64,000 nt of DNA from the NCBI GenBank assembly GCA_942493035.1, contig OW818666.1:3936813-4000812 (forward strand). The letters are read 5' to 3'. Shown here one piece after another: positions 8,668 to 56,174 of the stretch. The position numbers and the translations under genes are program-made. The notes under the pieces were generated by a model that was not told the DNA's origin, ran no database searches, and saw nothing but the letters and a program-made list of their open reading frames with translations. The first letter of the stretch is position 1; the number at the start of each line of letters is the position of its first letter. The stretch comes from an uncultured Spirochaetota bacterium. GTDB lineage: Bacteria; Spirochaetota; UBA4802; UBA5550.

Positions 8668-11394
8668 ATGGCTAAAAGAGTTTATAGTTTTGGCGCAGGA
8701 ATTGCAGAGGGTAGTGCCGACATGAAAAATCTGCTTGGCGGTAAAGGGGCGGGTTTGGCTGAAATGTCTGTTCTTGGTGTACCTGTATCTGCCGGATTTA
8801 CTATCACTACTGAAGTATGTACAGAGTATTATGATAATAACAAAGAGTTTCCTGCGGGTCTGGACAAAGATGTTGAAGCTGCGATGAAGAAAGTTGAAAA
8901 AATTATGGGTCACGGTTTTGGCGATGTTGAAAACCCATTGCTGGTTTCAGTAAGATCCGGAGCAAGAGTTTCAATGCCTGGTATGATGGATACTGTTCTA
9001 AATCTTGGTTTAAATGATCAGACAATAAAGGGGATCATCAGCAAAACAGGAAATGAAAGATTTGCATGGGATTCATACAGAAGATTTATTCAGATGTATG
9101 GTGATGTTGTAATGGGCCTTAAACCTGAATCTGCAGATGAGATTGATCCATTTGAAGAAGTAATGGATAAAGTTAAACATGAAAAGGGTTACACTTCAGA
9201 CGTTGATATGACTGTTGATGATCTTAAAGATTTAGTTAAAAGATTTAAAGCTATGATTAAAGCTAAATTGAAACGTCCATTTCCGGATGATCCGAAAGAG
9301 CAGCTATGGGAAGCTATTGGCGCAGTTTTTGGTTCATGGAATAATGAAAGAGCTATTTTATACAGAAAAATGAATCAGTTTGATGATGACTGGGGTACAG
9401 CTGTTACCGTACAGTCTATGGTATTTGGTAATATGGGGAATACCTGTGCAACAGGTGTTGCTTTTACAAGAGACCCCTCAACAGGGGAGAAAGCTTTTTA
9501 TGGTGAATATCTGGTAAATGCACAGGGTGAAGACGTTGTTGCAGGTATCAGAACTCCTCAGCAGGTTACACTTGTAAGCTCAAGAAACTGGGCAAAAGAG
9601 AATGGAGTAAGTGAAAAAGACAGAAAAGAAAAGTTTCCGTCTCTTCAGGAGTGTATGCCCAAGGCATATGATGAACTTGTAAAAGTTTATACTAAACTCG
9701 AAAAACATTATAAAGATATGCAGGACATTGAGTTTACAATTGAGAATGAAAAATTGTGGATGCTTCAGACAAGAAGCGGTAAAAGAACTGCAGCTGCAGC
9801 TGTAAATATTGCCGTTGATATGGTAAACGAAAAGCTTATAGATAAGAAGACTGCTCTTCTCAGAATAGATCCTGCTTCTCTTGATCAGCTTCTTCATCCT
9901 ACTTTTGATCCGAAAGGAAAAAAGGATGTAATAGCAAAAGGTCTTCCCGCTTCACCTGGTGCTGCGTATGGTAAAGTTGTATTCAACGCAGAAGAGGCAC
10001 ATGACTGGGCGGAGAAGGGTGAAAAGGTAATTCTTGTAAGGATAGAGACTTCACCTGAAGATCTTAAAGGAATGAACGCTGCACAGGGTATTCTTACACA
10101 GCGCGGCGGAATGACTTCTCATGCAGCTGTTGTTGCCAGAGGTATGGGTAAGTGCTGTGTTTGCGGCTGTGGTGTTCTAGGTATTGATTACGCTAAAAGA
10201 ACTATGACTGTGGCTGGAAGAGTTATAAAAGAGGGTGATTTTATCTCTCTTGATGGTTCTACCGGTGAAGTTATGTCTGGTAAAGTAGATACTGTTGAAG
10301 CGAAACTTTCAGGTAATTTTGAAACGATAATGAAATGGGCAGACGAATATAAAAAGCTTTCTGTTCGTACAAATGCAGATACCCCTCATGATGCTGCTGT
10401 TGCAAGAAAGTTCGGCGCGAAGGGAATTGGTCTCTGCCGTACAGAACATATGTTCTTCGAAGGGGATAGAATTAAAGCTGTAAGAGAGATGATCCTTTCC
10501 GAAGATGTTGAAGGAAGAAAGAAAGCTCTGAAAAAACTGCTTCCCATGCAGAAAAAGGATTTCACTGGAATTCTGAGTGCAATGGCAGGATATGGAGTTA
10601 CAATCAGGCTTCTCGATCCCCCTCTTCATGAATTTGTACCTCACGACGAAGAGAGTCAGAAAATTATGGCTAAAGAGATGGGAATGTCTCTTGAAAAAGT
10701 TAAAGCAAGGGTTGAATCTCTTCATGAGTTTAATCCAATGCTCGGACATAGGGGATGCCGTCTTGGAATAACATACCCTGAAATTACAGAGATGCAGGCT
10801 CAGGCGATATTTGAAGCTGCCTGTGAGCTTAAGAAAAAGGGTGTGGATGTAAAACCTGAAGTTATGGTTCCTCTAGTTGGAACTTTCAGAGAGATTGTTA
10901 TTCAGAAGAAAATTATCGTAGATACAGCTGAGAAAGTTATGGCACAGAAGAAAATTCGTGTTGATTATCAGGTTGGAACAATGATTGAAGTTCCAAGAGC
11001 GTGTCTCACTGCTGATAATATAGCTGCTGAAGCTGAATTCTTCTCATTTGGAACTAATGACCTTACTCAGATGACATTTGGTTTCAGCCGTGATGACGCG
11101 GGTTCCTTTTTACCTGAGTATGTTGATAGAAAAATTATATCAGTAGATCCATTTAAGACTATTGACAGAACAGGTGTTGGCGAACTGATGAAGCAGGCAG
11201 TTGCCAAGGGTCGTAAAGTGAACAAATTTCTGAAAATCGGAATTTGCGGAGAGCATGGTGGGGATCCGAATTCAATTGAATTCTGTCATATGCTTGGTCT
11301 CGATTATGTAAGTTGTTCACCTTACAGAGTTCCAATCGCAAGACTTGCAGCTGCACATGCTGTGATCTTGAATGATGAGAAAAAAAGTAAATAA
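8668..11394 (+). CDS. ppdK: Pyruvate, phosphate dikinase
   Basis: About 908 aa from ATG 8668 (AAAGGAGA SD); the track ORF starts 21 nt upstream. N-terminal ATP-grasp (MAKRVYSF...GGKGAGLAEM), phosphohistidine region (GGMTSHAAVVARGMGK), C-terminal PEP-utilising domain. Confidence 0.95.
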   Translation: MAKRVYSFGAGIAEGSADMKNLLGGKGAGLAEMSVLGVPVSAGFTITTEVCTEYYDNNKEFPAGLDKDVEAAMKKVEKIMGHGFGDVENPLLVSVRSGARVSMPGMMDTVLNLGLNDQTIKGIISKTGNERFAWDSYRRFIQMYGDVVMGLKPESADEIDPFEEVMDKVKHEKGYTSDVDMTVDDLKDLVKRFKAMIKAKLKRPFPDDPKEQLWEAIGAVFGSWNNERAILYRKMNQFDDDWGTAVTVQSMVFGNMGNTCATGVAFTRDPSTGEKAFYGEYLVNAQGEDVVAGIRTPQQVTLVSSRNWAKENGVSEKDRKEKFPSLQECMPKAYDELVKVYTKLEKHYKDMQDIEFTIENEKLWMLQTRSGKRTAAAAVNIAVDMVNEKLIDKKTALLRIDPASLDQLLHPTFDPKGKKDVIAKGLPASPGAAYGKVVFNAEEAHDWAEKGEKVILVRIETSPEDLKGMNAAQGILTQRGGMTSHAAVVARGMGKCCVCGCGVLGIDYAKRTMTVAGRVIKEGDFISLDGSTGEVMSGKVDTVEAKLSGNFETIMKWADEYKKLSVRTNADTPHDAAVARKFGAKGIGLCRTEHMFFEGDRIKAVREMILSEDVEGRKKALKKLLPMQKKDFTGILSAMAGYGVTIRLLDPPLHEFVPHDEESQKIMAKEMGMSLEKVKARVESLHEFNPMLGHRGCRLGITYPEITEMQAQAIFEAACELKKKGVDVKPEVMVPLVGTFREIVIQKKIIVDTAEKVMAQKKIRVDYQVGTMIEVPRACLTADNIAAEAEFFSFGTNDLTQMTFGFSRDDAGSFLPEYVDRKIISVDPFKTIDRTGVGELMKQAVAKGRKVNKFLKIGICGEHGGDPNSIEFCHMLGLDYVSCSPYRVPIARLAAAHAVILNDEKKSK

Positions 11395-24577: not shown

Positions 24578-25423
24578 ATGATTATTAACCACAATATGTC
24601 CGCTATTAATGCAAACAGAGCCCTAAAATTTCAGAACTGGAACGTAAGCAAGAATATGGAAGCTCTCTCTTCCGGTTTGAGAATTAACAAAGCTGGCGAT
24701 GATGCATCAGGTCTTGCAGTATCAGAAAAAATGAGAACTCAGATTAACGGTTTAAGACAGGCTGAAAGAAATACTGAAGATGGTATGTCTTTTATCCAGA
24801 CAACTGAAGGATATCTTGATGAAGTATCAAGCATTATCCAGAGAGTCAGGGTTCTTGCTGTACAATCTTCAAACGGAATCTATTCTGTAGAAGACAGACA
24901 GCTTATCCAGGTTGAAGTTTCTCAGCTGGTTGATGAAGTAGATAGAATTGCATCACAGGCGGAGTTTAACAAAATGAATCTTCTTCAGGGAGATTTTGCA
25001 AGAGTAAGTGTTACAGCATCTATGTGGATACACATGGGAGCAAACATGCATCAGAGAGAAAGAATATTCATTCAGACAATGACTGCTAAAGCTCTTGGTC
25101 TGAAAAATATGACAGGTAACCCTATCACTCTTTCAACTGCTGGTGAAGCGAACAGAAACATCGGGGTTATGGACAATGCTCTTCATGTACTTTCAAAGCA
25201 GAGAGCGGATTTAGGAGCATACTACAACAGGATGGAACATGCTGCTAAAGGCTTAATGACAGCGTATGAAAACATTCAATCATCTGAAAGCCGTATTAGA
25301 GACGCAGATATGGCAGAGACTATGGTTGATTTTACTAAGAATCAGATTCTTGTGCAGAGTGGTACTGCGATGCTTGCTCAGGCGAATTCAAAGTCTCAGG
25401 GAATTCTCCAGTTACTTAGATAA
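24578..25423 (+). CDS. flaB: Flagellar filament core protein FlaB (spirochete flagellin)
   Basis: 281 aa; N-terminus [18 protein letters not shown], conserved flagellin N- and C-terminal domains. Confidence 0.95.
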
Positions 25424-25449: not shown

Positions 25450-25660
25450 CCCCGGCGGGCTTGGGAGAGCCGGCCGGGTTTCCCTTTTGGGAGAAAAATA
25501 GAGTTCTTTGAAAACGATATTATAGCGAGCATGAGGCCCCGCAGGGGCATAACGGAGGGGCGAAGTAAGGGCGAAAAATCTTTCGCCCTTACTTCGCCCA
25601 TACTTCTTCGCCAACACAACCCGCCCACAGGCGAGGCCGCATGGTCGCTGTAATGAAGGC
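25450..25660 (+). other. GC-rich structured intergenic element between the flaB genes, with a 19-bp perfect hairpin (25558-25599)
   Basis: GGGCGAAGTAAGGGCGAAA-AATC-TTTCGCCCTTACTTCGCCC plus smaller stems; GC content far above the local background. Confidence 0.4.
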
Positions 25661-25780
25661 GTCTGTATTCCCTATAGTAAGAGTACAAACCTGGTATCAA
25701 ATGCCTGATAAGGATGTCAGGCAGTTTCGAGTCCTGTAGGAGGGACTTTAAACATCTAATTAAACAAAGGAGTGTTTAAT

Positions 25781-26632
25781 ATGATTATCAATCATAACAT
25801 GAGTGCAATCAATGCTAATAAAGCGTTGAAGTTCAAGCAGTGGGATACAAACAAGTCAATGGAATCTCTTTCCTCTGGTCTCCGGATCAATAAGGCTGGA
25901 GATGATGCTTCAGGACTTGCTGTGTCTGAAAAGATGAGAACACAGATTCAGGGTTTAAGACAGGCTGAGAGAAATACTGAGGATGGTATGTCTTTCGTTC
26001 AGACTACTGAAGGGTATCTGAACCAGACTACTGAAATACTTCAAAGGATTAGAGTTCTTGCCGTACAATCTTCAAACGGTATCTATTCTGATCAGGATAG
26101 ACAGCTTATCCAGGTTGAAGTTTCAGCTCTTGTTGACGAAGTTGACAGGATAGCATCACAGGCTGAGTTTAATAAATTTAAACTTCTGCTGGGGGATTTC
26201 TCAAAAACCGGTGCGAAAGCCAGTATGTGGTTTCATATGGGTGCAAATATGAATCAGCGGGAGAGGGTTTATATTGGTACTATGACTGCGAACGGTTTAG
26301 GTCTTAAAGAAAAAAATGGCGCCTTTATCGCTGATCTGGCATCTGCTGACAGCGCAAACAGAACTATTGGTGTGGTCGACGATGCTCTTCACAAAATTTC
26401 TAAGCAGCGGGCGGACCTTGGCGCATATTTTAACAGACTCGACTATGCTACAAGAGGTCTAATGACTGCCTATGAAAATATACAAGCATCCGAAAGCCGG
26501 ATAAGAGACGCTGATATGGCTGAAACAATGGTTGATTTAACAAAAGATCAAGTTCTAGTGCAGAGTGGTACTGCGATGTTAGCTCAGGCAAATATGAAAA
26601 CAAGAACCATTCTTCAGCTTCTTGGCGGTTGA
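25781..26632 (+). CDS. flaB: Flagellar filament core protein FlaB, second paralog
   Basis: About 283 aa from ATG 25781 (AAAGGAG SD; track start is GTG); N-terminus [18 protein letters not shown]. Confidence 0.95.
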
Positions 26633-51079: not shown

Positions 51080-51364
51080 CTAAAGCAGTGCATCGTATCT
51101 TTTTTTTATCGGATTAAGGAGATACTCAAGGCCATAAATTTTTATTTCATAGAGTGTAGATAAAAGCATTCCAAGTCTCCCTGAAGGGAAACCGTTTTCA
51201 TGATACCATACAACATAATGTTCAGGGAGATTGCACAACGTCACACCTTTGTATTTTCCGTATGGCATCTCTGTAGTTACCAGATCAAACAGTACAGTTG
51301 GATCCATCATCTCATTCATACTCTTTTCATTATTTTCCATCAGAGACAGCGCCTTTTGTTTCAT
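51080..51364 (-). CDS. DUF3820-like small protein
   Basis: Conserved MPYGKYKG...LP..Y..W core; start ambiguous (51364, 51340 or 51319) and overlaps the upstream tgt-fusion gene. Confidence 0.5.
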   Translation of the reverse strand: MKQKALSLMENNEKSMNEMMDPTVLFDLVTTEMPYGKYKGVTLCNLPEHYVVWYHENGFPSGRLGMLLSTLYEIKIYGLEYLLNPIKKRYDALL

Positions 51365-53381
51365 GAAACTGAGGGTGATTTAAAATGAGTTTTTCAATCC
51401 GATCCTGTTCATCTTTAGAGATGTATTCATCGAACTTTGCGCTGCTCCTTTTGAATCGTTCAAGCCACTCAGTTCCAAGGAGTTTTATGTCGGAGTTTTT
51501 AATTTCCAGTGATGTGAATGCAGCAGTGGTATCGTTTTTAGGACCTGTTCCCTTTCCTGATCCGGTATAAAAACCTGCAGCAAGAAGTGATCCTCTTACC
51601 ATGGTGGAGCTTGAATATGTAAAGAGTTTAGCAGGTCTGTTTATGCAGTGATTGTATATACGTTTAAATACAGAATAATTCCAGAGAGTTCCATTTGTAT
51701 TCAAAGAGAACGGATCGAAGAAAATGCAGTGCGGCTGATGAGATTTTTCAATATGATCAAGAAAATCCCCCTCAACAAGATTCCATTCAATATTAAACTT
51801 ATCAGATCTCCATGACCCTTTGTTAAGAATTGAAGCAGGAGCTGAGTGCCGCACATGATGAAAAAGTGACGGATTTTTTACTGTAAGGAGGAATGAGTCG
51901 AGATCATTTTCAAAGCTTACTATGCGCACCACTTTCTGAAAATTATTTTCAGAATATAGTTTTTCACATTCCAGTATTGCAGCCATTGCATTAGTCGCTG
52001 AACCCATCCCCACATCCCAGATAACAAGTTCGTCATCGGTAATTGAATTGAGCATCACTTCCAGCTCTGACTGGTCAACGTAAAGAGTTTTTGCTTCAGT
52101 TAAAGGTTCAATAACAGAATGCATTATCTCCCCCGATTTTATATGACGAATGCTGTGAAATCCCGCATCCTGTTTTACAATCTGGTAGTCTCCAAGTGCA
52201 GGTAGCTCTGACTTTTTTTTGCGAATAGGGTGAGTTACCGGATGTTCATCGTCATCCCGTACTAACAGTTCTTTCTGTTCGGAGTAGTAAGATGCAAAGG
52301 TTCCTTTTAGAATATGATTCCGCATTGAATTCATAAGATTGCGGTAAAAAGTGAGATTATGTATTCCAATGAGATTGCCGCCATAGTACTCCTGAGTCTT
52401 AGTCAGGTGATGGAGATAGGCGCGGCTGTATCTGCTGCATGCCGGGCAGGAACAGTTTTCGTCAAGGGGTCTGTCCTGGAATTTATAGATCCCTCTGCGC
52501 AGCTCCATTCTTCCATGGGATGTATATGCAACTCCCTGCTGTGCCATTGCAGTCGGGAGGATGCAGTCGAACATATCGACACCACGGTGAACTCCCTCTA
52601 AAAGGTCTATTGGAGTTCCCACACCCATGAGATATCTCGGATAGTCGCGCGGGAGGAGTGATGCGGTAAACTCAGTCATGTCCTTTCTTTCATCTTCAGA
52701 TTCACCAACTGCAAGCCCGCCGATTGCAAATCCGTCAAAGGGGAGGGATGTAATCTGTCCTGCGCTCATTTTCCGGAGTTCCGGGAAACATGCACCCTGT
52801 ACAATTCCGAAAATAGATTGAGCTGAATCTCCCCTTGCTGCTATACTTCTCTCTGCCCATCTTGCTGTAATATCGGCTGCCTCTCTGCAGAGAGACTCTT
52901 CTGATGTGGACGGAATACACTGATCCATTGCCATCATTATATCGCTGTTAATTAATTTCTGTGTTCCGATACTTGTTTCCGGACTTAAAAGAATTTTTCT
53001 GCCATCGTGATAACTTCTGAAGACGGCACCATCTTCAGTTACTTTAACATCTTTTGAAAGTGAAAATACCTGAAAGCCTCCTGAGTCAGTAAGTACAGAT
53101 CTCTTCCAGTTCATGAACTGATGTATCCCTCCGAACTTCCGGAAAACATCAGTCCCGGGGCGGAGCAGCAGATGATATGTATTTGCCAGTAGAACAGGAA
53201 ACCCCAAATCCTCAACGGCAGTAGTATCCTGTGAACGGAGTACAGCAAGGGTCGCTACGGGCATAAATACAGGTGTCTGTACGGTATTGTGCAGTGTAGT
53301 GAAAGTGGATGCACGTGCAGCTGAATTTTCCGCTTCAGCTTCAACGGTGAAACCAAGGCGATGTATATTTTTTAAGTTCAT
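51330..53381 (-). CDS. tgt: Queuine tRNA-ribosyltransferase (Tgt) fused to a C-terminal MnmC2-like (DUF752) methyltransferase-like domain
   Basis: 683 aa. Residues 1-370 match Tgt (LTDSGGFQVFSL, Zn site CSCPACSRYSRAYLHHL); residues 440-650 resemble the MnmC methyltransferase domain (VIWDVGMGSATN, FFDPFSLNTNGTLWN, FTYSSSTMVRGSLLAAGF). Confidence 0.8.
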   Translation of the reverse strand: MNLKNIHRLGFTVEAEAENSAARASTFTTLHNTVQTPVFMPVATLAVLRSQDTTAVEDLGFPVLLANTYHLLLRPGTDVFRKFGGIHQFMNWKRSVLTDSGGFQVFSLSKDVKVTEDGAVFRSYHDGRKILLSPETSIGTQKLINSDIMMAMDQCIPSTSEESLCREAADITARWAERSIAARGDSAQSIFGIVQGACFPELRKMSAGQITSLPFDGFAIGGLAVGESEDERKDMTEFTASLLPRDYPRYLMGVGTPIDLLEGVHRGVDMFDCILPTAMAQQGVAYTSHGRMELRRGIYKFQDRPLDENCSCPACSRYSRAYLHHLTKTQEYYGGNLIGIHNLTFYRNLMNSMRNHILKGTFASYYSEQKELLVRDDDEHPVTHPIRKKKSELPALGDYQIVKQDAGFHSIRHIKSGEIMHSVIEPLTEAKTLYVDQSELEVMLNSITDDELVIWDVGMGSATNAMAAILECEKLYSENNFQKVVRIVSFENDLDSFLLTVKNPSLFHHVRHSAPASILNKGSWRSDKFNIEWNLVEGDFLDHIEKSHQPHCIFFDPFSLNTNGTLWNYSVFKRIYNHCINRPAKLFTYSSSTMVRGSLLAAGFYTGSGKGTGPKNDTTAAFTSLEIKNSDIKLLGTEWLERFKRSSAKFDEYISKDEQDRIEKLILNHPQFHETKGAVSDGK

Positions 53382-53451: not shown

Positions 53452-53910
53452 ATGAGGGATTTTTTTATCGGGGAGAGGATATTATTAATTGAGCGAATGA
53501 TCCTTTCCGTTGGGGTGAATGATTATTCGCCCGTACGAGGTTGAGAGAAATTTTATAAAGGGGATATTTTTAGGAGTGGGATTTTTTTATCGGGGGAGAG
53601 GGGATTTTTAATTGAGCGAATGATCCTTTCCGTTGGGGCGAATGATTATTCGCCAGTACGAGGTTGAGAGAAATTTTATAAAGGGGATATTTTTAGGAGT
53701 GGGATTTTTTTATCGGGGAGAGGGGATTTTTTAATTGAGCGAATGATCCTATCCGTTGGGGCGAATGATTATTCGCCCGTACGAGGTTGAGAGAAATTTT
53801 ATAAAGGGGATATTTTTAGGAGTGGGATTTTTTTATTGGGGAGAGGATATTTTTAATTGAGCGAATGATCCTATCCGTTGGGGCGAATGATTATTCGCCC
53901 GTACGTGATT
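53452..53910 (+). repeat. Tandem array of four ~122-bp units, each with REP hairpin GGGCGAATGATTATTCGCCC
   Basis: Near-identical units beginning AGTGGGATTTTTTTATCGGGGAGAGG...; each holds GAGCGAATGATCC plus the palindromic GGGCGAAT-GATT-ATTCGCCC followed by GTACG. Confidence 0.85.
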
Positions 53911-54013
53911 GGGAGAATAATATTTATAAAATATTTTTTATTAAGGGAATTTTTTAAAAATTTCTCTGCTGCTATCGTATTCATATGTAAGAAATATTAT
54001 TAAGGAATTTAAA

Positions 54014-54565
54014 ATGTCATATAATCCGGTTTTTCATCATAGGCGATCTATTCGTTTAAAGAGATTTGATTATTCTTCTTCGGGTGCATATTTTGTTACT
54101 TTATGTGTAAAAAATAGAACAAAAATTTTTGGCTATATTGTCGGTGGTAAAATGATTTTAAATGCTGCCGGTATAGCAGCTCAGTTATGCTGGCAGGAGA
54201 TACCTTTACATTATCCCTTTGTTTCTCTGGATGTATTTGTTATTATGCCCGATCATATTCATGGGATAATTTTGATTAAGGAATCGGATTTGAGGTGGGG
54301 AAAGGATACTGATGTCGTGGAGAATGATTATTCGCCTGTACGTGAAAATGATAATTTGTTTCATAATAAGCGGCCGCGCGGTACTTCAAAAACAATCGGA
54401 TCGGTTGTTCGCGGATATAAGATAGGTGTAACAAAATGGTTCCGTAAGCATACACTTGTCGAGTCTGTCTGGCAGCGAGATTATTATGAGAATATTATAA
54501 GAAATTATGATGATTTAAATCGAATTCGTAGGTATATTATAAATAATCCGCAGAAGTGGAGATAG
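54014..54565 (+). CDS. REP-associated tyrosine transposase (RAYT; IS200/IS605-like HUH Y1 transposase)
   Basis: 183 aa; N-terminal GAYFVTLCVKNR, HUH motif PDHIHGII, C-terminal WQRDYYENIIR...YIINNPQKW, all resembling E. coli RayT/YafM; flanked on both sides by REP copies. Confidence 0.8.
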   Translation: MSYNPVFHHRRSIRLKRFDYSSSGAYFVTLCVKNRTKIFGYIVGGKMILNAAGIAAQLCWQEIPLHYPFVSLDVFVIMPDHIHGIILIKESDLRWGKDTDVVENDYSPVRENDNLFHNKRPRGTSKTIGSVVRGYKIGVTKWFRKHTLVESVWQRDYYENIIRNYDDLNRIRRYIINNPQKWR

Positions 54566-54595: not shown

Positions 54596-54675
54596 TCTTT
54601 TTTTTCGGGAGAATTATATCTTGATTTGAGAGAATGATATTATCTGTCGGGGCGAATGATTATTCGCCCGTACGG
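54596..54675 (+). repeat. REP unit downstream of the RAYT gene
   Basis: TTGATTTGAGAGAATGATATTATCTGTCGGGGCGAATGATTATTCGCCCGTACGG, same unit as the upstream array. Confidence 0.75.
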
Positions 54676-54715: not shown

Positions 54716-55078
54716 ATGAAAATTATTTCGCAGGTCTTAATCGGATTAATAGCATTTCAGCATCTGTATATTCTATGGATCGAGATGTTTGTATGGACTA
54801 CAGTGGGGAGGAAAGTGTTCAGAGGTTTTCCAAAAGAATTTTTTCATACAACAAAGGCTATGGCTGCCAATCAGGGTTTATACAACGGATTTCTTGCTGC
54901 AGGATTAATATGGTCGCTTCTGATATCAGATAGAATCTGGAGTTTTCAGGTTTCACTTTTTTTTCTGGCGTGTGTAGTTACAGCGGGTGTTTTCGGAGCT
55001 TTTACAGCGGATAAGAAGATATTTTTTGTTCAGGCTCTCCCTGCTTTAATTGCAATGGCTGTTTTATTTCTGGCTTAG
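54716..55078 (+). CDS. Small membrane protein, DUF1304-like
   Basis: About 120 aa from ATG 54716 (GGAGAAAA SD); the track ORF start at 54656 lies inside the REP hairpin and is rejected; 3-4 TM helices, NQGLYNGFLAAGL motif. Confidence 0.5.
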   Translation: MKIISQVLIGLIAFQHLYILWIEMFVWTTVGRKVFRGFPKEFFHTTKAMAANQGLYNGFLAAGLIWSLLISDRIWSFQVSLFFLACVVTAGVFGAFTADKKIFFVQALPALIAMAVLFLA

Positions 55079-55085
55079 ATTTATT

Positions 55086-55106
55086 GGGGCGAATGATTCA
55101 TCGCCC
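55086..55106. repeat. REP variant hairpin, terminator-like between convergent genes
   Basis: GGGGCGAATGATTCATCGCCC. Confidence 0.6.
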
Positions 55107-55112
55107 TTACTT

Positions 55113-56174
55113 TTATTCTGTAAATTCATGATGGATTTCGAGAAATTGATCGATGTTTTTAATAAATAGTTCTGCAAGTTCCGGATCAAAAATTTTTCCG
55201 GAATTGTCTTTGATGTAGATGCATGAATCATTGATGTTCCATGCATCCTTGTAAACCCTTGAATGTGATATTGCATCAAATACATCTACTATGGTTGTTA
55301 TCCTGGCATTGAGAGGGATATCCTTTCCGCTGATACCGTTGGGATATCCGGAGCCGTCCCAGTTCTCATGGTGACACAAAGCAATCTCTGCTGCCAGTTT
55401 CAGTACAGGGAGTTCTGATGTATTGAAAATCGAGTAGCCGATAGTTGTATGTGTTTTGATTACAGCAAATTCTTCATCGGTAAGTTCTCCAGGTTTATTT
55501 AAGATGCTGTCAGGAATTCCGATTTTTCCCACATCGTGCATCGGGGAGGCGAGTTTTATATCAAGTGCCTGATATTCAGTCATTCCATAGAGTTTTCCTA
55601 GAAGATAGGTATATTCTGAAACTCTCTGTACATGGTTTCCTGTTTCGTGAGATCGTGTTTCGACAACGTCACCAAGTTTAAGAATAATCTCTTTTTGAGC
55701 TGCAATAAGTGATCTGCTCATCTCAATTACCTGGGCTGTTTTTCGTACAACTTCCTCTTCAAGATGTTCACGGTAAAGCCGGTTTTCAGATTTAAGACGT
55801 GCATTCTCAAATACACGATTCAAGGTTATAGGTAACACTGAAAAACTGGTTATAGGTTTAGGAATAAAATCCCAGGCTCCTCTTCTTAAAGCTTCAACTG
55901 CTTTCTCTATTAATCCGATACCGGACAATACTATTATAGGCATATTAGGATTTTCCGGTGCTACTCTTTCTATAACCTCAAAACCATTAATTTCGGGCAT
56001 GTTGAGATCCGTTATAACCGCATCATATTTTTTTGATCTAATCATTTCGACTGCTTCGCGTCCATTAGAAGCAGTATCGGTGCGATACCCGACGTGTTCG
56101 AGATAGGCAGATATAGATTCTCTTATAACCTTTTCATCATCAACGACAAGAATTAATTTATCTTCGCAATCCAT
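55113..56174 (-). CDS. Response regulator with HD-GYP domain (c-di-GMP phosphodiesterase type)
   Basis: 353 aa; receiver domain (LVVDDEKVIRESI...DAVITDLNMPEINGFE) plus HD-GYP domain (HHENWDGSGYP). Confidence 0.9.
   Translation of the reverse strand: MDCEDKLILVVDDEKVIRESISAYLEHVGYRTDTASNGREAVEMIRSKKYDAVITDLNMPEINGFEVIERVAPENPNMPIIVLSGIGLIEKAVEALRRGAWDFIPKPITSFSVLPITLNRVFENARLKSENRLYREHLEEEVVRKTAQVIEMSRSLIAAQKEIILKLGDVVETRSHETGNHVQRVSEYTYLLGKLYGMTEYQALDIKLASPMHDVGKIGIPDSILNKPGELTDEEFAVIKTHTTIGYSIFNTSELPVLKLAAEIALCHHENWDGSGYPNGISGKDIPLNARITTIVDVFDAISHSRVYKDAWNINDSCIYIKDNSGKIFDPELAELFIKNIDQFLEIHHEFTE

Follow-up and report, generated by a model that had tools for sequence, protein, structure and literature searches.

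A REP-derived segment inside a subclass 2.4-like RAYT gene of an uncultured Spirochaetota bacterium is probably an eroded copy of the genome's own REP

INTRODUCTION

In-frame REPs located inside the transposase gene, between the HuH motif and the catalytic tyrosine, are a hallmark of TnpA-REP subclass 2.4 (Quentin, Siguier, Chandler and Fichant 2018, BMC Genomics 19:475; PMC6006769), which is RAYT Group 4 of Bertels et al. 2017 (PMC5581495). In Table 1 of the former study, subclass 2.4 has the signature NH[IFV]H, WQ and YIxNNP and no C-terminal extension. Its median length is 194 aa and its median HuH-Y distance is 88 aa, with a highly variable spacer (PMC6006769). The REPs of this subclass are long or "double foot", lie within 1 kb of the gene, carry GT[AG]G as their 5′ foot, and are closed at the base of the stem by three G-C pairs (PMC6006769). 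The Y motif is different in related subclasses, being YIH[QN]NP in subclass 2.6 and YI[LR][NQ]NP in subclass 2.7 (PMC6006769). A named member of subclass 2.4 is K9PHU2 of Calothrix PCC 7507. In-frame REPs within unrelated genes had been catalogued earlier (Di Nocera et al. 2013, PMC3733652).

Here we analyse a 64,000-nt stretch of contig OW818666.1 from an uncultured Spirochaetota bacterium (the window), in which a RAYT gene carries a segment resembling the REPs that flank it. Its homologs, its codons, its predicted structure and the erosion of its hairpin in one lineage are compared with the described systems.

RESULTS

A subclass 2.4-like RAYT gene with an enlarged, disordered linker

The window contains a subclass 2.4-like RAYT (TnpA-REP) gene at 54014–54565 on the + strand, an open reading frame of 183 aa identified by profile, homologs and structure. 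The HUH motif, H81-I82-H83, lies inside PDHIHG (54254–54262, +), and the catalytic tyrosine is Y174 of YIINNP (54533–54535, +). In an alignment of 22 diverse sequences (A1), H81 and H83 occupy invariant columns, as do W153-Q154 and the motif Y174-I-I-N-N-P179 (Y174, I175, N178 and P179). The protein ends nine residues past the tyrosine and thus has no C-terminal extension. The spacing from H83 to Y174 is 91 residues, compared with 58–67 in most TnpA-Y1 subclasses (PMC6006769), in agreement with the claim of an earlier reading made from the sequence only that this region is longer than in typical RAYTs. The protein matches NCBIfam REP_Tyr_transpos (NF047646) at 1.8e-14 and 53.8 bits, below the cut-off of 80, and Pfam Y1_Tnp (PF01797) weakly, at 17.3 bits, below the cut-off of 23; both matches fall short because the core is split.

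The structural model predicted by AlphaFold2 from the 22-sequence alignment has a mean pLDDT of 76 and a pTM of 0.71, with most of the core above 90. In particular, residues 94–121 (54293–54376, +) have a pLDDT below 50 and are without secondary structure, and A1 varies in length at this position. This variable linker, predicted to be disordered, houses the REP-derived DNA, with the REP-encoded residues 101–111 lying within the loop. The top Foldseek match of the model is 4ER8, the structure of E. coli TnpA-REP with a bound REP hairpin, and the IS608 and ISDra2 transposases come next; all of the top 30 matches are TnpA-REP or IS200/IS605 transposases, with probabilities of 0.98–1.0. Furthermore, a sequence profile reaches 4er8 at 2.7e-5, with Y174 aligned to the YIYINP region of 4ER8. 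The core is intact, and the model predicts that folding should be normal, which answers the question of whether a protein carrying this segment is still predicted to fold. In the window RAYT and its ortholog L081, an N replaces the GTAG-contacting His of most homologs (YYENIIR versus YYEHIIR).

The YIINNP motif excludes subclasses 2.6 and 2.7. Homologs from Nostocales and other cyanobacteria match the window RAYT with E-values of ~1e-40 to 1e-45. Judged by its motifs and architecture, the window RAYT is probably a TnpA-REP of subclass 2.4, or RAYT Group 4.

One REP family lies upstream, downstream and inside the gene

We searched the 64-kb window with the REP core GCGAATGATTATTCGCCCGTACG, allowing up to three mismatches, and used 100 dinucleotide-preserving shuffles of the window as a control. 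Six matches were found, all on the + strand, five of them intergenic (0–1 mismatch) and one in the RAYT gene; the 100 shuffles gave none. The in-gene core, GAGAATGATTATTCGCCTGTACG at 54320–54342, shares 21 of its 23 bases with the core of the flanking REPs. The sequence-only reading had reported this match, and had placed it in frame between the HUH motif (H81/H83) and the tyrosine (Y174); both statements are correct, and the coordinates it gave are right to within 1–2 bases.

The likeness to the REP extends beyond the core, over approximately 54313–54345 (+), and includes a GTCG foot at 54314–54317. This in-frame, partly decayed copy codes for V101 V102 E103 N104 D105 Y106 S107 P108 V109 R110 E111. 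Its 5′ flank, tgtcgtg, is similar to the tgtcggg of the downstream copy, and its 3′ flank, tga, is that of the copy at 53883. The REP consensus of the genome is GT[TC]G-GGGCGAAT-GATT-ATTCGCCC-GTAC, and the intergenic REP consists of an 8-bp stem with a 4-nt loop (GATT) and a GGG/CCC stem base. The feet of the window REPs are GTTG or GTCG on the 5′ side and GTAC on the 3′ side (53509–53512, 54314–54317 and 54646–54649), while the canonical foot is GT[AG]G. Translated in the frame of the gene, the intergenic REP of the window reads G-A-N-D-Y-S-P-V-R, which is the motif found across the family.

Seven REP copies are present around the RAYT gene, with REPs on both sides. The upstream array (53460–53950, +) is made of four tandem units of ~123 nt, each comprising a half-REP, GAGCGAATGAT, placed 22 nt ahead of a full REP, and the full-REP cores are located at 53515–53537, 53638–53660, 53761–53783 and 53883–53905 (all +). 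The same arrangement is kept in the syntenic orthologs L081, L083, L084 and L085. The downstream REP is an exact core match in the same orientation (54652–54674, +). A degenerate REP, GGGGCGAATGATTCATCGCCCTTAC, lies past the DUF1304 gene (55079–55110, +), where a looser hairpin pattern matches at 55087; this is the convergent junction of the DUF1304 gene and a response-regulator/HD gene (55113–56174). The listed start of the DUF1304 reading frame, 54656, falls within the downstream REP, and translation probably begins at the ATG at 54717 instead.

Immediately past the in-gene copy there is a probable second, more decayed REP-derived unit, GAAAATGATAATTTG..., at 54344–54367 (+), which codes for ENDNLFHN. 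This assignment is tentative: the unit lies 24 nt past the first and has four mismatches to a 15-nt REP half, a level reached on the + strand by ~12 background matches per 64 kb outside the REP zone, and the post hoc p-value for its adjacency is ~0.01. The MAFFT alignment sets it opposite the decayed copy of the orthologs.

The REP is found well outside this locus. An exact 25-mer of it occurs in 77 metagenome stretches, of which only two have a RAYT nearby, indicating that the REP is genuinely dispersed. In a GC-rich metagenome contig (L139, positions 1900–2700), the REP type of the window, GGGGCGAATGATTATTCGCCC, is present upstream of, inside and downstream of a RAYT gene whose product is 49% identical to the window protein; the REP hairpin is the same and its foot is GTAG. 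The REP sequence is thus conserved between genomes that differ greatly in base composition.

Another REP type is present elsewhere in the window as a long nested palindrome, GGGGCGAAGTAAGGGCGAAAAATCTTTCGCCCTTACTTCGCCC (25556–25600), between FlaB-like flagellin genes (24578–25423 and 25772–26632). The looser hairpin pattern also matches here, at 25569. Read on the − strand the palindrome encodes RAKDFSPL, the common in-gene motif of the family, and no RAYT gene adjoins it.

A cognate REP at this linker site is the rule in the subfamily

A protein-database search returned 3,317 homologs, of which 120 listed ones were inspected. Nearly all of these 120 carry the motif VGA[KN][ND][FYH]SPL between the HUH motif and the GTSKTIGS block, often several times in tandem, and the residue after SPL is Q, R, P or H. 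The homologs are 176–296 aa long, and the variation lies entirely within the HuH-Y spacer. In A1, VVENDYSPV of the window protein is aligned under this motif. A literature search with the peptide motifs (GAKNFSPL and others) gave no match.

To examine the DNA, we retrieved 80 homologous loci from many phyla, with reading frames anchored by tblastn and flanks of up to 10 kb per side. In this set the codons of the motif are fixed as GTA GGG GCG ... TCG CCC CTA C. Specifically, Val is GTA in 15 of 20 cases, Gly is GGG in 19 of 20, Ser is TCG in 14 of 14, Pro is CCC in 20 of 20 and Leu is CTA in 13 of 14. The codon after SPL begins with C in nearly all homologs, which completes the CTAC foot. Together the fixed codons spell the "double-foot" REP GTAGGGGCGAAAAATTTTTCGCCCCTAC, which is perfectly palindromic and presents a GTAG foot on each strand. 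In distant homologs, other palindromes occupy the same place, encoding VGARHAVPL, VGAQHAAPL, VGAGLKPAPT, VETQNLASL or GEHTGSPL. The earlier reading had named, as the outcome that would refute it, orthologous RAYTs encoding the same peptide with unrelated nucleotides; the homologs instead use REP-specific codons for the equivalent peptide, and the reading is not refuted.

Hairpins were counted in 58 well-delimited, trimmed genes, taking perfect hairpins of at least 7 bp. The linker holds 53 hairpins in 6,069 nt, and 44 of the 58 genes (76%) have a perfect hairpin there; the N-terminal part of the core has 6 in 14,436 nt and the C-terminal part 11 in 13,110 nt. The core of the in-gene hairpin recurs (≤2 mismatches) in the extragenic flanks of its own locus at 24 of 43 loci (56%), compared with 147 of 3,655 pairings with the flanks of other loci (4%). 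Matching extragenic copies are mostly within ~150 nt of the gene ends. The VGAKNFSPL type of REP is common to many unrelated genomes, and the cross-locus control is uninformative for that type alone. Of the 53 in-gene hairpins, 24 are without an extragenic copy in the fetched locus (≤10 kb each side); when the loci are limited to those with ≥15 kb of flank, the figure is 13 of 28. All these counts come from homologs that are phylogenetically non-independent and from MAG contigs, which tend to break at repeats. A cognate REP at exactly this linker site is the rule in the subfamily, and the in-gene copy matches the flanking REPs of its own gene.

Three further features characterise the family. 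First, 28-nt in-gene REPs are identical across phyla where the proteins are only ~50% identical. Second, of 54 matches to the GT[AG]GGG foot, 49 fall in codon frame 0, despite differing REP cores. Third, one REP, GTAGGGGCACGGCATGCCGTGCCCCTAC, is read in two frames in homologous genes, as VGARHAVPL in L038, L039 and L065 and as RGTACRAPT in L032, which points to entry of DNA rather than conservation of a peptide. The linkers of homologs also contain tandem multiplications (VGANVGANAGAN...).

The Fluviicola chungangensis locus L024 encodes two paralogous subclass 2.4-like genes 9 kb apart (951–1484 and 9995–10522). Both contain a perfect in-gene GTAGGGGCGAAAAATTTTTCGCCCCTAC, and neither has an extragenic counterpart within the 20-kb locus.

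The in-gene hairpin decays in this lineage while the enzyme core is maintained

Four syntenic orthologs (L081, L083, L084 and L085) are 72–77% identical to the window RAYT and retain both the TGT - RAYT - DUF1304 neighbourhood and the flanking REP family. The TGT gene encodes a 683-aa protein (51330–53381, −), in which a tRNA-guanine transglycosylase domain is fused to a Methyltransf_30 domain. This fusion gene lies upstream of the RAYT gene in all syntenic orthologs, indicating that the chromosomal position of the RAYT gene is fixed.

The in-gene copy of the window differs from the intact REP at three positions in the arms, which break the 8-bp stem. In the 5′ arm, GTG has replaced GGG and GAG has replaced GCG, which substitutes Val for Gly and Glu for Ala; in the 3′ arm, CCT has replaced CCC, which is synonymous. 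The calculated DNA folding energy is −9.2 kcal/mol for the intergenic REP (8-bp stem, loop GATT) and −4.2 kcal/mol for the window in-gene copy. The in-gene copies of the orthologs are weaker still, at −2.2 kcal/mol for L081 (GTGGCGAATAATCATTCTCCC, foot lost), −1.7 kcal/mol for L083 (TCGAATAATCATTTGTCC) and 0 kcal/mol for L084 and L085 (TCGAATAAATATTTATCT). As RNA, the window in-gene copy folds at −5.5 kcal/mol (z −0.65), like shuffled sequences, compared with −14.5 kcal/mol for the intergenic REP. The embedded segment therefore forms the REP hairpin poorly.

The enzyme core shows pairwise dN/dS of 0.17–0.27 at dS of 0.24–0.35 among the window gene and its syntenic orthologs, indicating that the RAYT genes are retained even as the in-gene repeat erodes. 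At this dS, neutral decay since the ortholog split would produce about as many changes as the three mismatches in 28 nt that are seen. On the same ground, a recent lineage-specific insertion as sole explanation is rejected.

The loop of the window copy is GATTA, compared with AATCA in the orthologs, and the protein alignment (A1) and the DNA alignment (MAFFT) disagree on where the window copy lies relative to that of the orthologs. The copy in the window may correspond by position to that of the orthologs, or it may be a newer unit 24 nt upstream of it.

With the TnpA-REP of S. maltophilia, cleavage is lost when the middle of the stem contains a mismatch or when the foot is GTTG or GTAC (PMC8266576). 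Since the stem of the window in-gene copy is broken, this precedent makes it unlikely that the copy is still a substrate of the RAYT.

DISCUSSION

Origin and maintenance of the in-gene REP

The in-gene segment is, on its nucleotide and codon agreement with REPs, REP-derived DNA, and a chance or peptide-level resemblance is ruled out. The sequence-only reading had suggested an in-frame insertion into the transposase gene. REP-derived DNA is indeed read in frame, but it is not a private insertion of ~10 residues, as almost every listed homolog has an equivalent; alignment with the syntenic orthologs, which carry an eroded equivalent, likewise speaks against an insertion specific to this lineage.

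We consider it probable that window positions 54313–54345 represent the genome's own REP, copied into a permissive loop and since partly eroded, that such a copy is the rule in the subfamily and arose by entry and renewal, and that it is now a passenger. REP DNA would have entered the permissive, disordered loop connecting the HUH strand with the helix before the catalytic tyrosine; its route would have been RAYT-type single-strand transposition beside an existing foot, or else gene conversion with the adjacent REP array as donor. The copy would then have been renewed periodically and in register, and a copy would survive only if it preserved the frame and did not expose the TAG stop contained in GTAG. 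We infer both acquisition and renewal. The tandem multiplications in homologs, together with the probable second decayed unit of the window, fit growth of REP clusters in place. In the window lineage, the copy would now be a tolerated passenger.

At the level of the family, the data are not easily explained by a purely passive passenger. The perfect hairpins in 76% of genes, the identical 28-mers across phyla, the frame bias (49 of 54) and the roughly half of in-gene hairpins without an extragenic copy in the fetched locus are all counterpoints to it. The family data are equally compatible with in-register homogenisation with a conserved genomic REP pool and with selection on the in-gene element.

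The same four observations favour a reading that we regard as unlikely overall, namely that the in-gene REP is a functional cis-element under selection, acting as an autoregulatory site in the gene or its mRNA or as a heritable master copy that reseeds REPs. A perfect linker hairpin kept in 44 of 58 homologs, 28-nt identity where the proteins have diverged by half, a foot held in frame 0 whatever the core, and hairpins that persist with no extragenic partner in the fetched locus (24 of 53, or 13 of 28 with at least 15 kb of flank) are in its favour. The window copy would then be a weakened yet still meaningful version. Stated for subclass 2.4 as a whole, the in-gene REP would be a fixed frame-0 element, kept by selection or by RAYT-mediated in-register exchange and used as a regulatory site or a reseeding template. 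This broader statement also has, in our judgement, a low probability; if it is true, the window records the outcome once that constraint lapses. However, the hairpin is decayed in all four syntenic genomes while the core is under purifying selection, indicating that the in-gene REP is dispensable in this lineage, and the RNA folding of the window copy is no better than that of shuffles. Moreover, continuous homogenisation with a conserved REP pool would equally yield perfect copies, the flank seen was at most 10 kb on each side of the gene in MAG contigs that break at repeats, and the homologs are phylogenetically non-independent.

A derivation in the opposite direction, in which the extragenic REPs stem from an internal segment of the gene, had also been raised in the sequence-only reading, and we find it quite improbable. 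In its favour, the in-gene element is fixed in position and is more widespread than detectable flanking REPs in our sample. Against it, REPs or hairpin ends also flank Y1 transposase genes of subclasses that have no in-gene copy (PMC6006769), which suggests that the extragenic element is more general and probably older. In addition, the reading of one REP in two frames (VGARHAVPL and RGTACRAPT) fits DNA arriving from outside, and the tandem multiplications in the linker look like growth of a REP cluster.

Finally, peptide convergence, in which the loop merely needs a Gly/Ala/Asn/Ser/Pro-rich peptide and the nucleotide match is accidental, has nothing but the low complexity of the peptide to recommend it and is refuted by the codon and covariation data: the shuffles give no match, synonymous positions are fixed to the REP sequence over phyla and GC contents (including L139), the C after SPL completes the CTAC foot in nearly all cases, and the hairpin in each gene varies in step with the flanks of that gene.

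With an eroded own-genome REP as the preferred reading, the window adds a further, eroded example of a feature described in 2018, and the phenomenon itself is known. The relationship between transposase and substrate is accordingly not unusual, as had been supposed, since in-gene REPs are the published hallmark of subclass 2.4 (PMC6006769). Our analysis sharpens that description in four respects: the in-gene repeat varies together with the repeats that flank the same gene, its codons are fixed across phyla, its codon register is almost always the same, and it can decay while the enzyme is kept. These points bear on whether the link between a domesticated RAYT and its REPs runs via enzyme-substrate recognition only, or also via a copy of the substrate held in the gene.

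Comparison with known systems

The closest described system is subclass 2.4. As in that subclass, the REP of the window gene is in frame, between HuH and Y, in the variable peripheral loop between beta3 and alphaC. The protein has WQ, YIINNP, an enlarged spacer (91 residues; median 88), a length of 183 aa and no C-terminal extension, REPs with a stem base of three G-C pairs flank the gene within 1 kb, and homologs are spread across Bacteroidota, Cyanobacteria, Chloroflexota and other phyla. The locus departs from the subclass in several respects. The window protein and its four syntenic orthologs read DHIH rather than NH[IFV]H, so that three of four positions fit; most homologs have NH[IVL]H, and D is also found in L007, L009 and L014. 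The window REPs have GT[TC]G and GTAC as feet in place of GT[AG]G and C[TC]AC, and the in-gene copy is eroded, whereas those described are intact. The host belongs to Spirochaetota, with which the FlaB-like flagellins encoded in the window agree; this group has no mention in the supplement of PMC6006769.

The single-copy gene of the E. coli TnpA-REP, or REPtron (4ER8; PMC3479197; PMC8266576), is flanked by REPs at a conserved chromosomal position, like the window gene, and its product has the same HUH/Tyr fold. Unlike the window RAYT, the enzyme of E. coli, which belongs to subclass 2.2, has a short HuH-Y spacer, no in-gene REP, bulged REPs and a C-terminal tail. The TnpA proteins of the IS200/IS605 family (IS608, ISDra2) share the catalytic fold, and their hairpins, like the window copies, which are all on the + strand, lie on one strand on both sides of the gene. 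In contrast to the window RAYT, IS200/IS605 elements are insertion sequences that are autonomous and present in multiple copies; their hairpins occupy strictly subterminal positions outside the coding sequence.

Rickettsia palindromic elements are short palindromes that lie in frame in protein loops and are comparable to intragenic REPs. Like these elements and the intragenic REPs catalogued earlier (PMC3733652), the in-gene REPs studied here are palindromes tolerated in permissive loops, sometimes multimerised, that add 10–30 residues. Unlike the catalogued intragenic REPs (PMC3733652), which are scattered, the site here is constant over the whole RAYT subfamily, and the host gene encodes the very enzyme presumed to mobilise the repeat.
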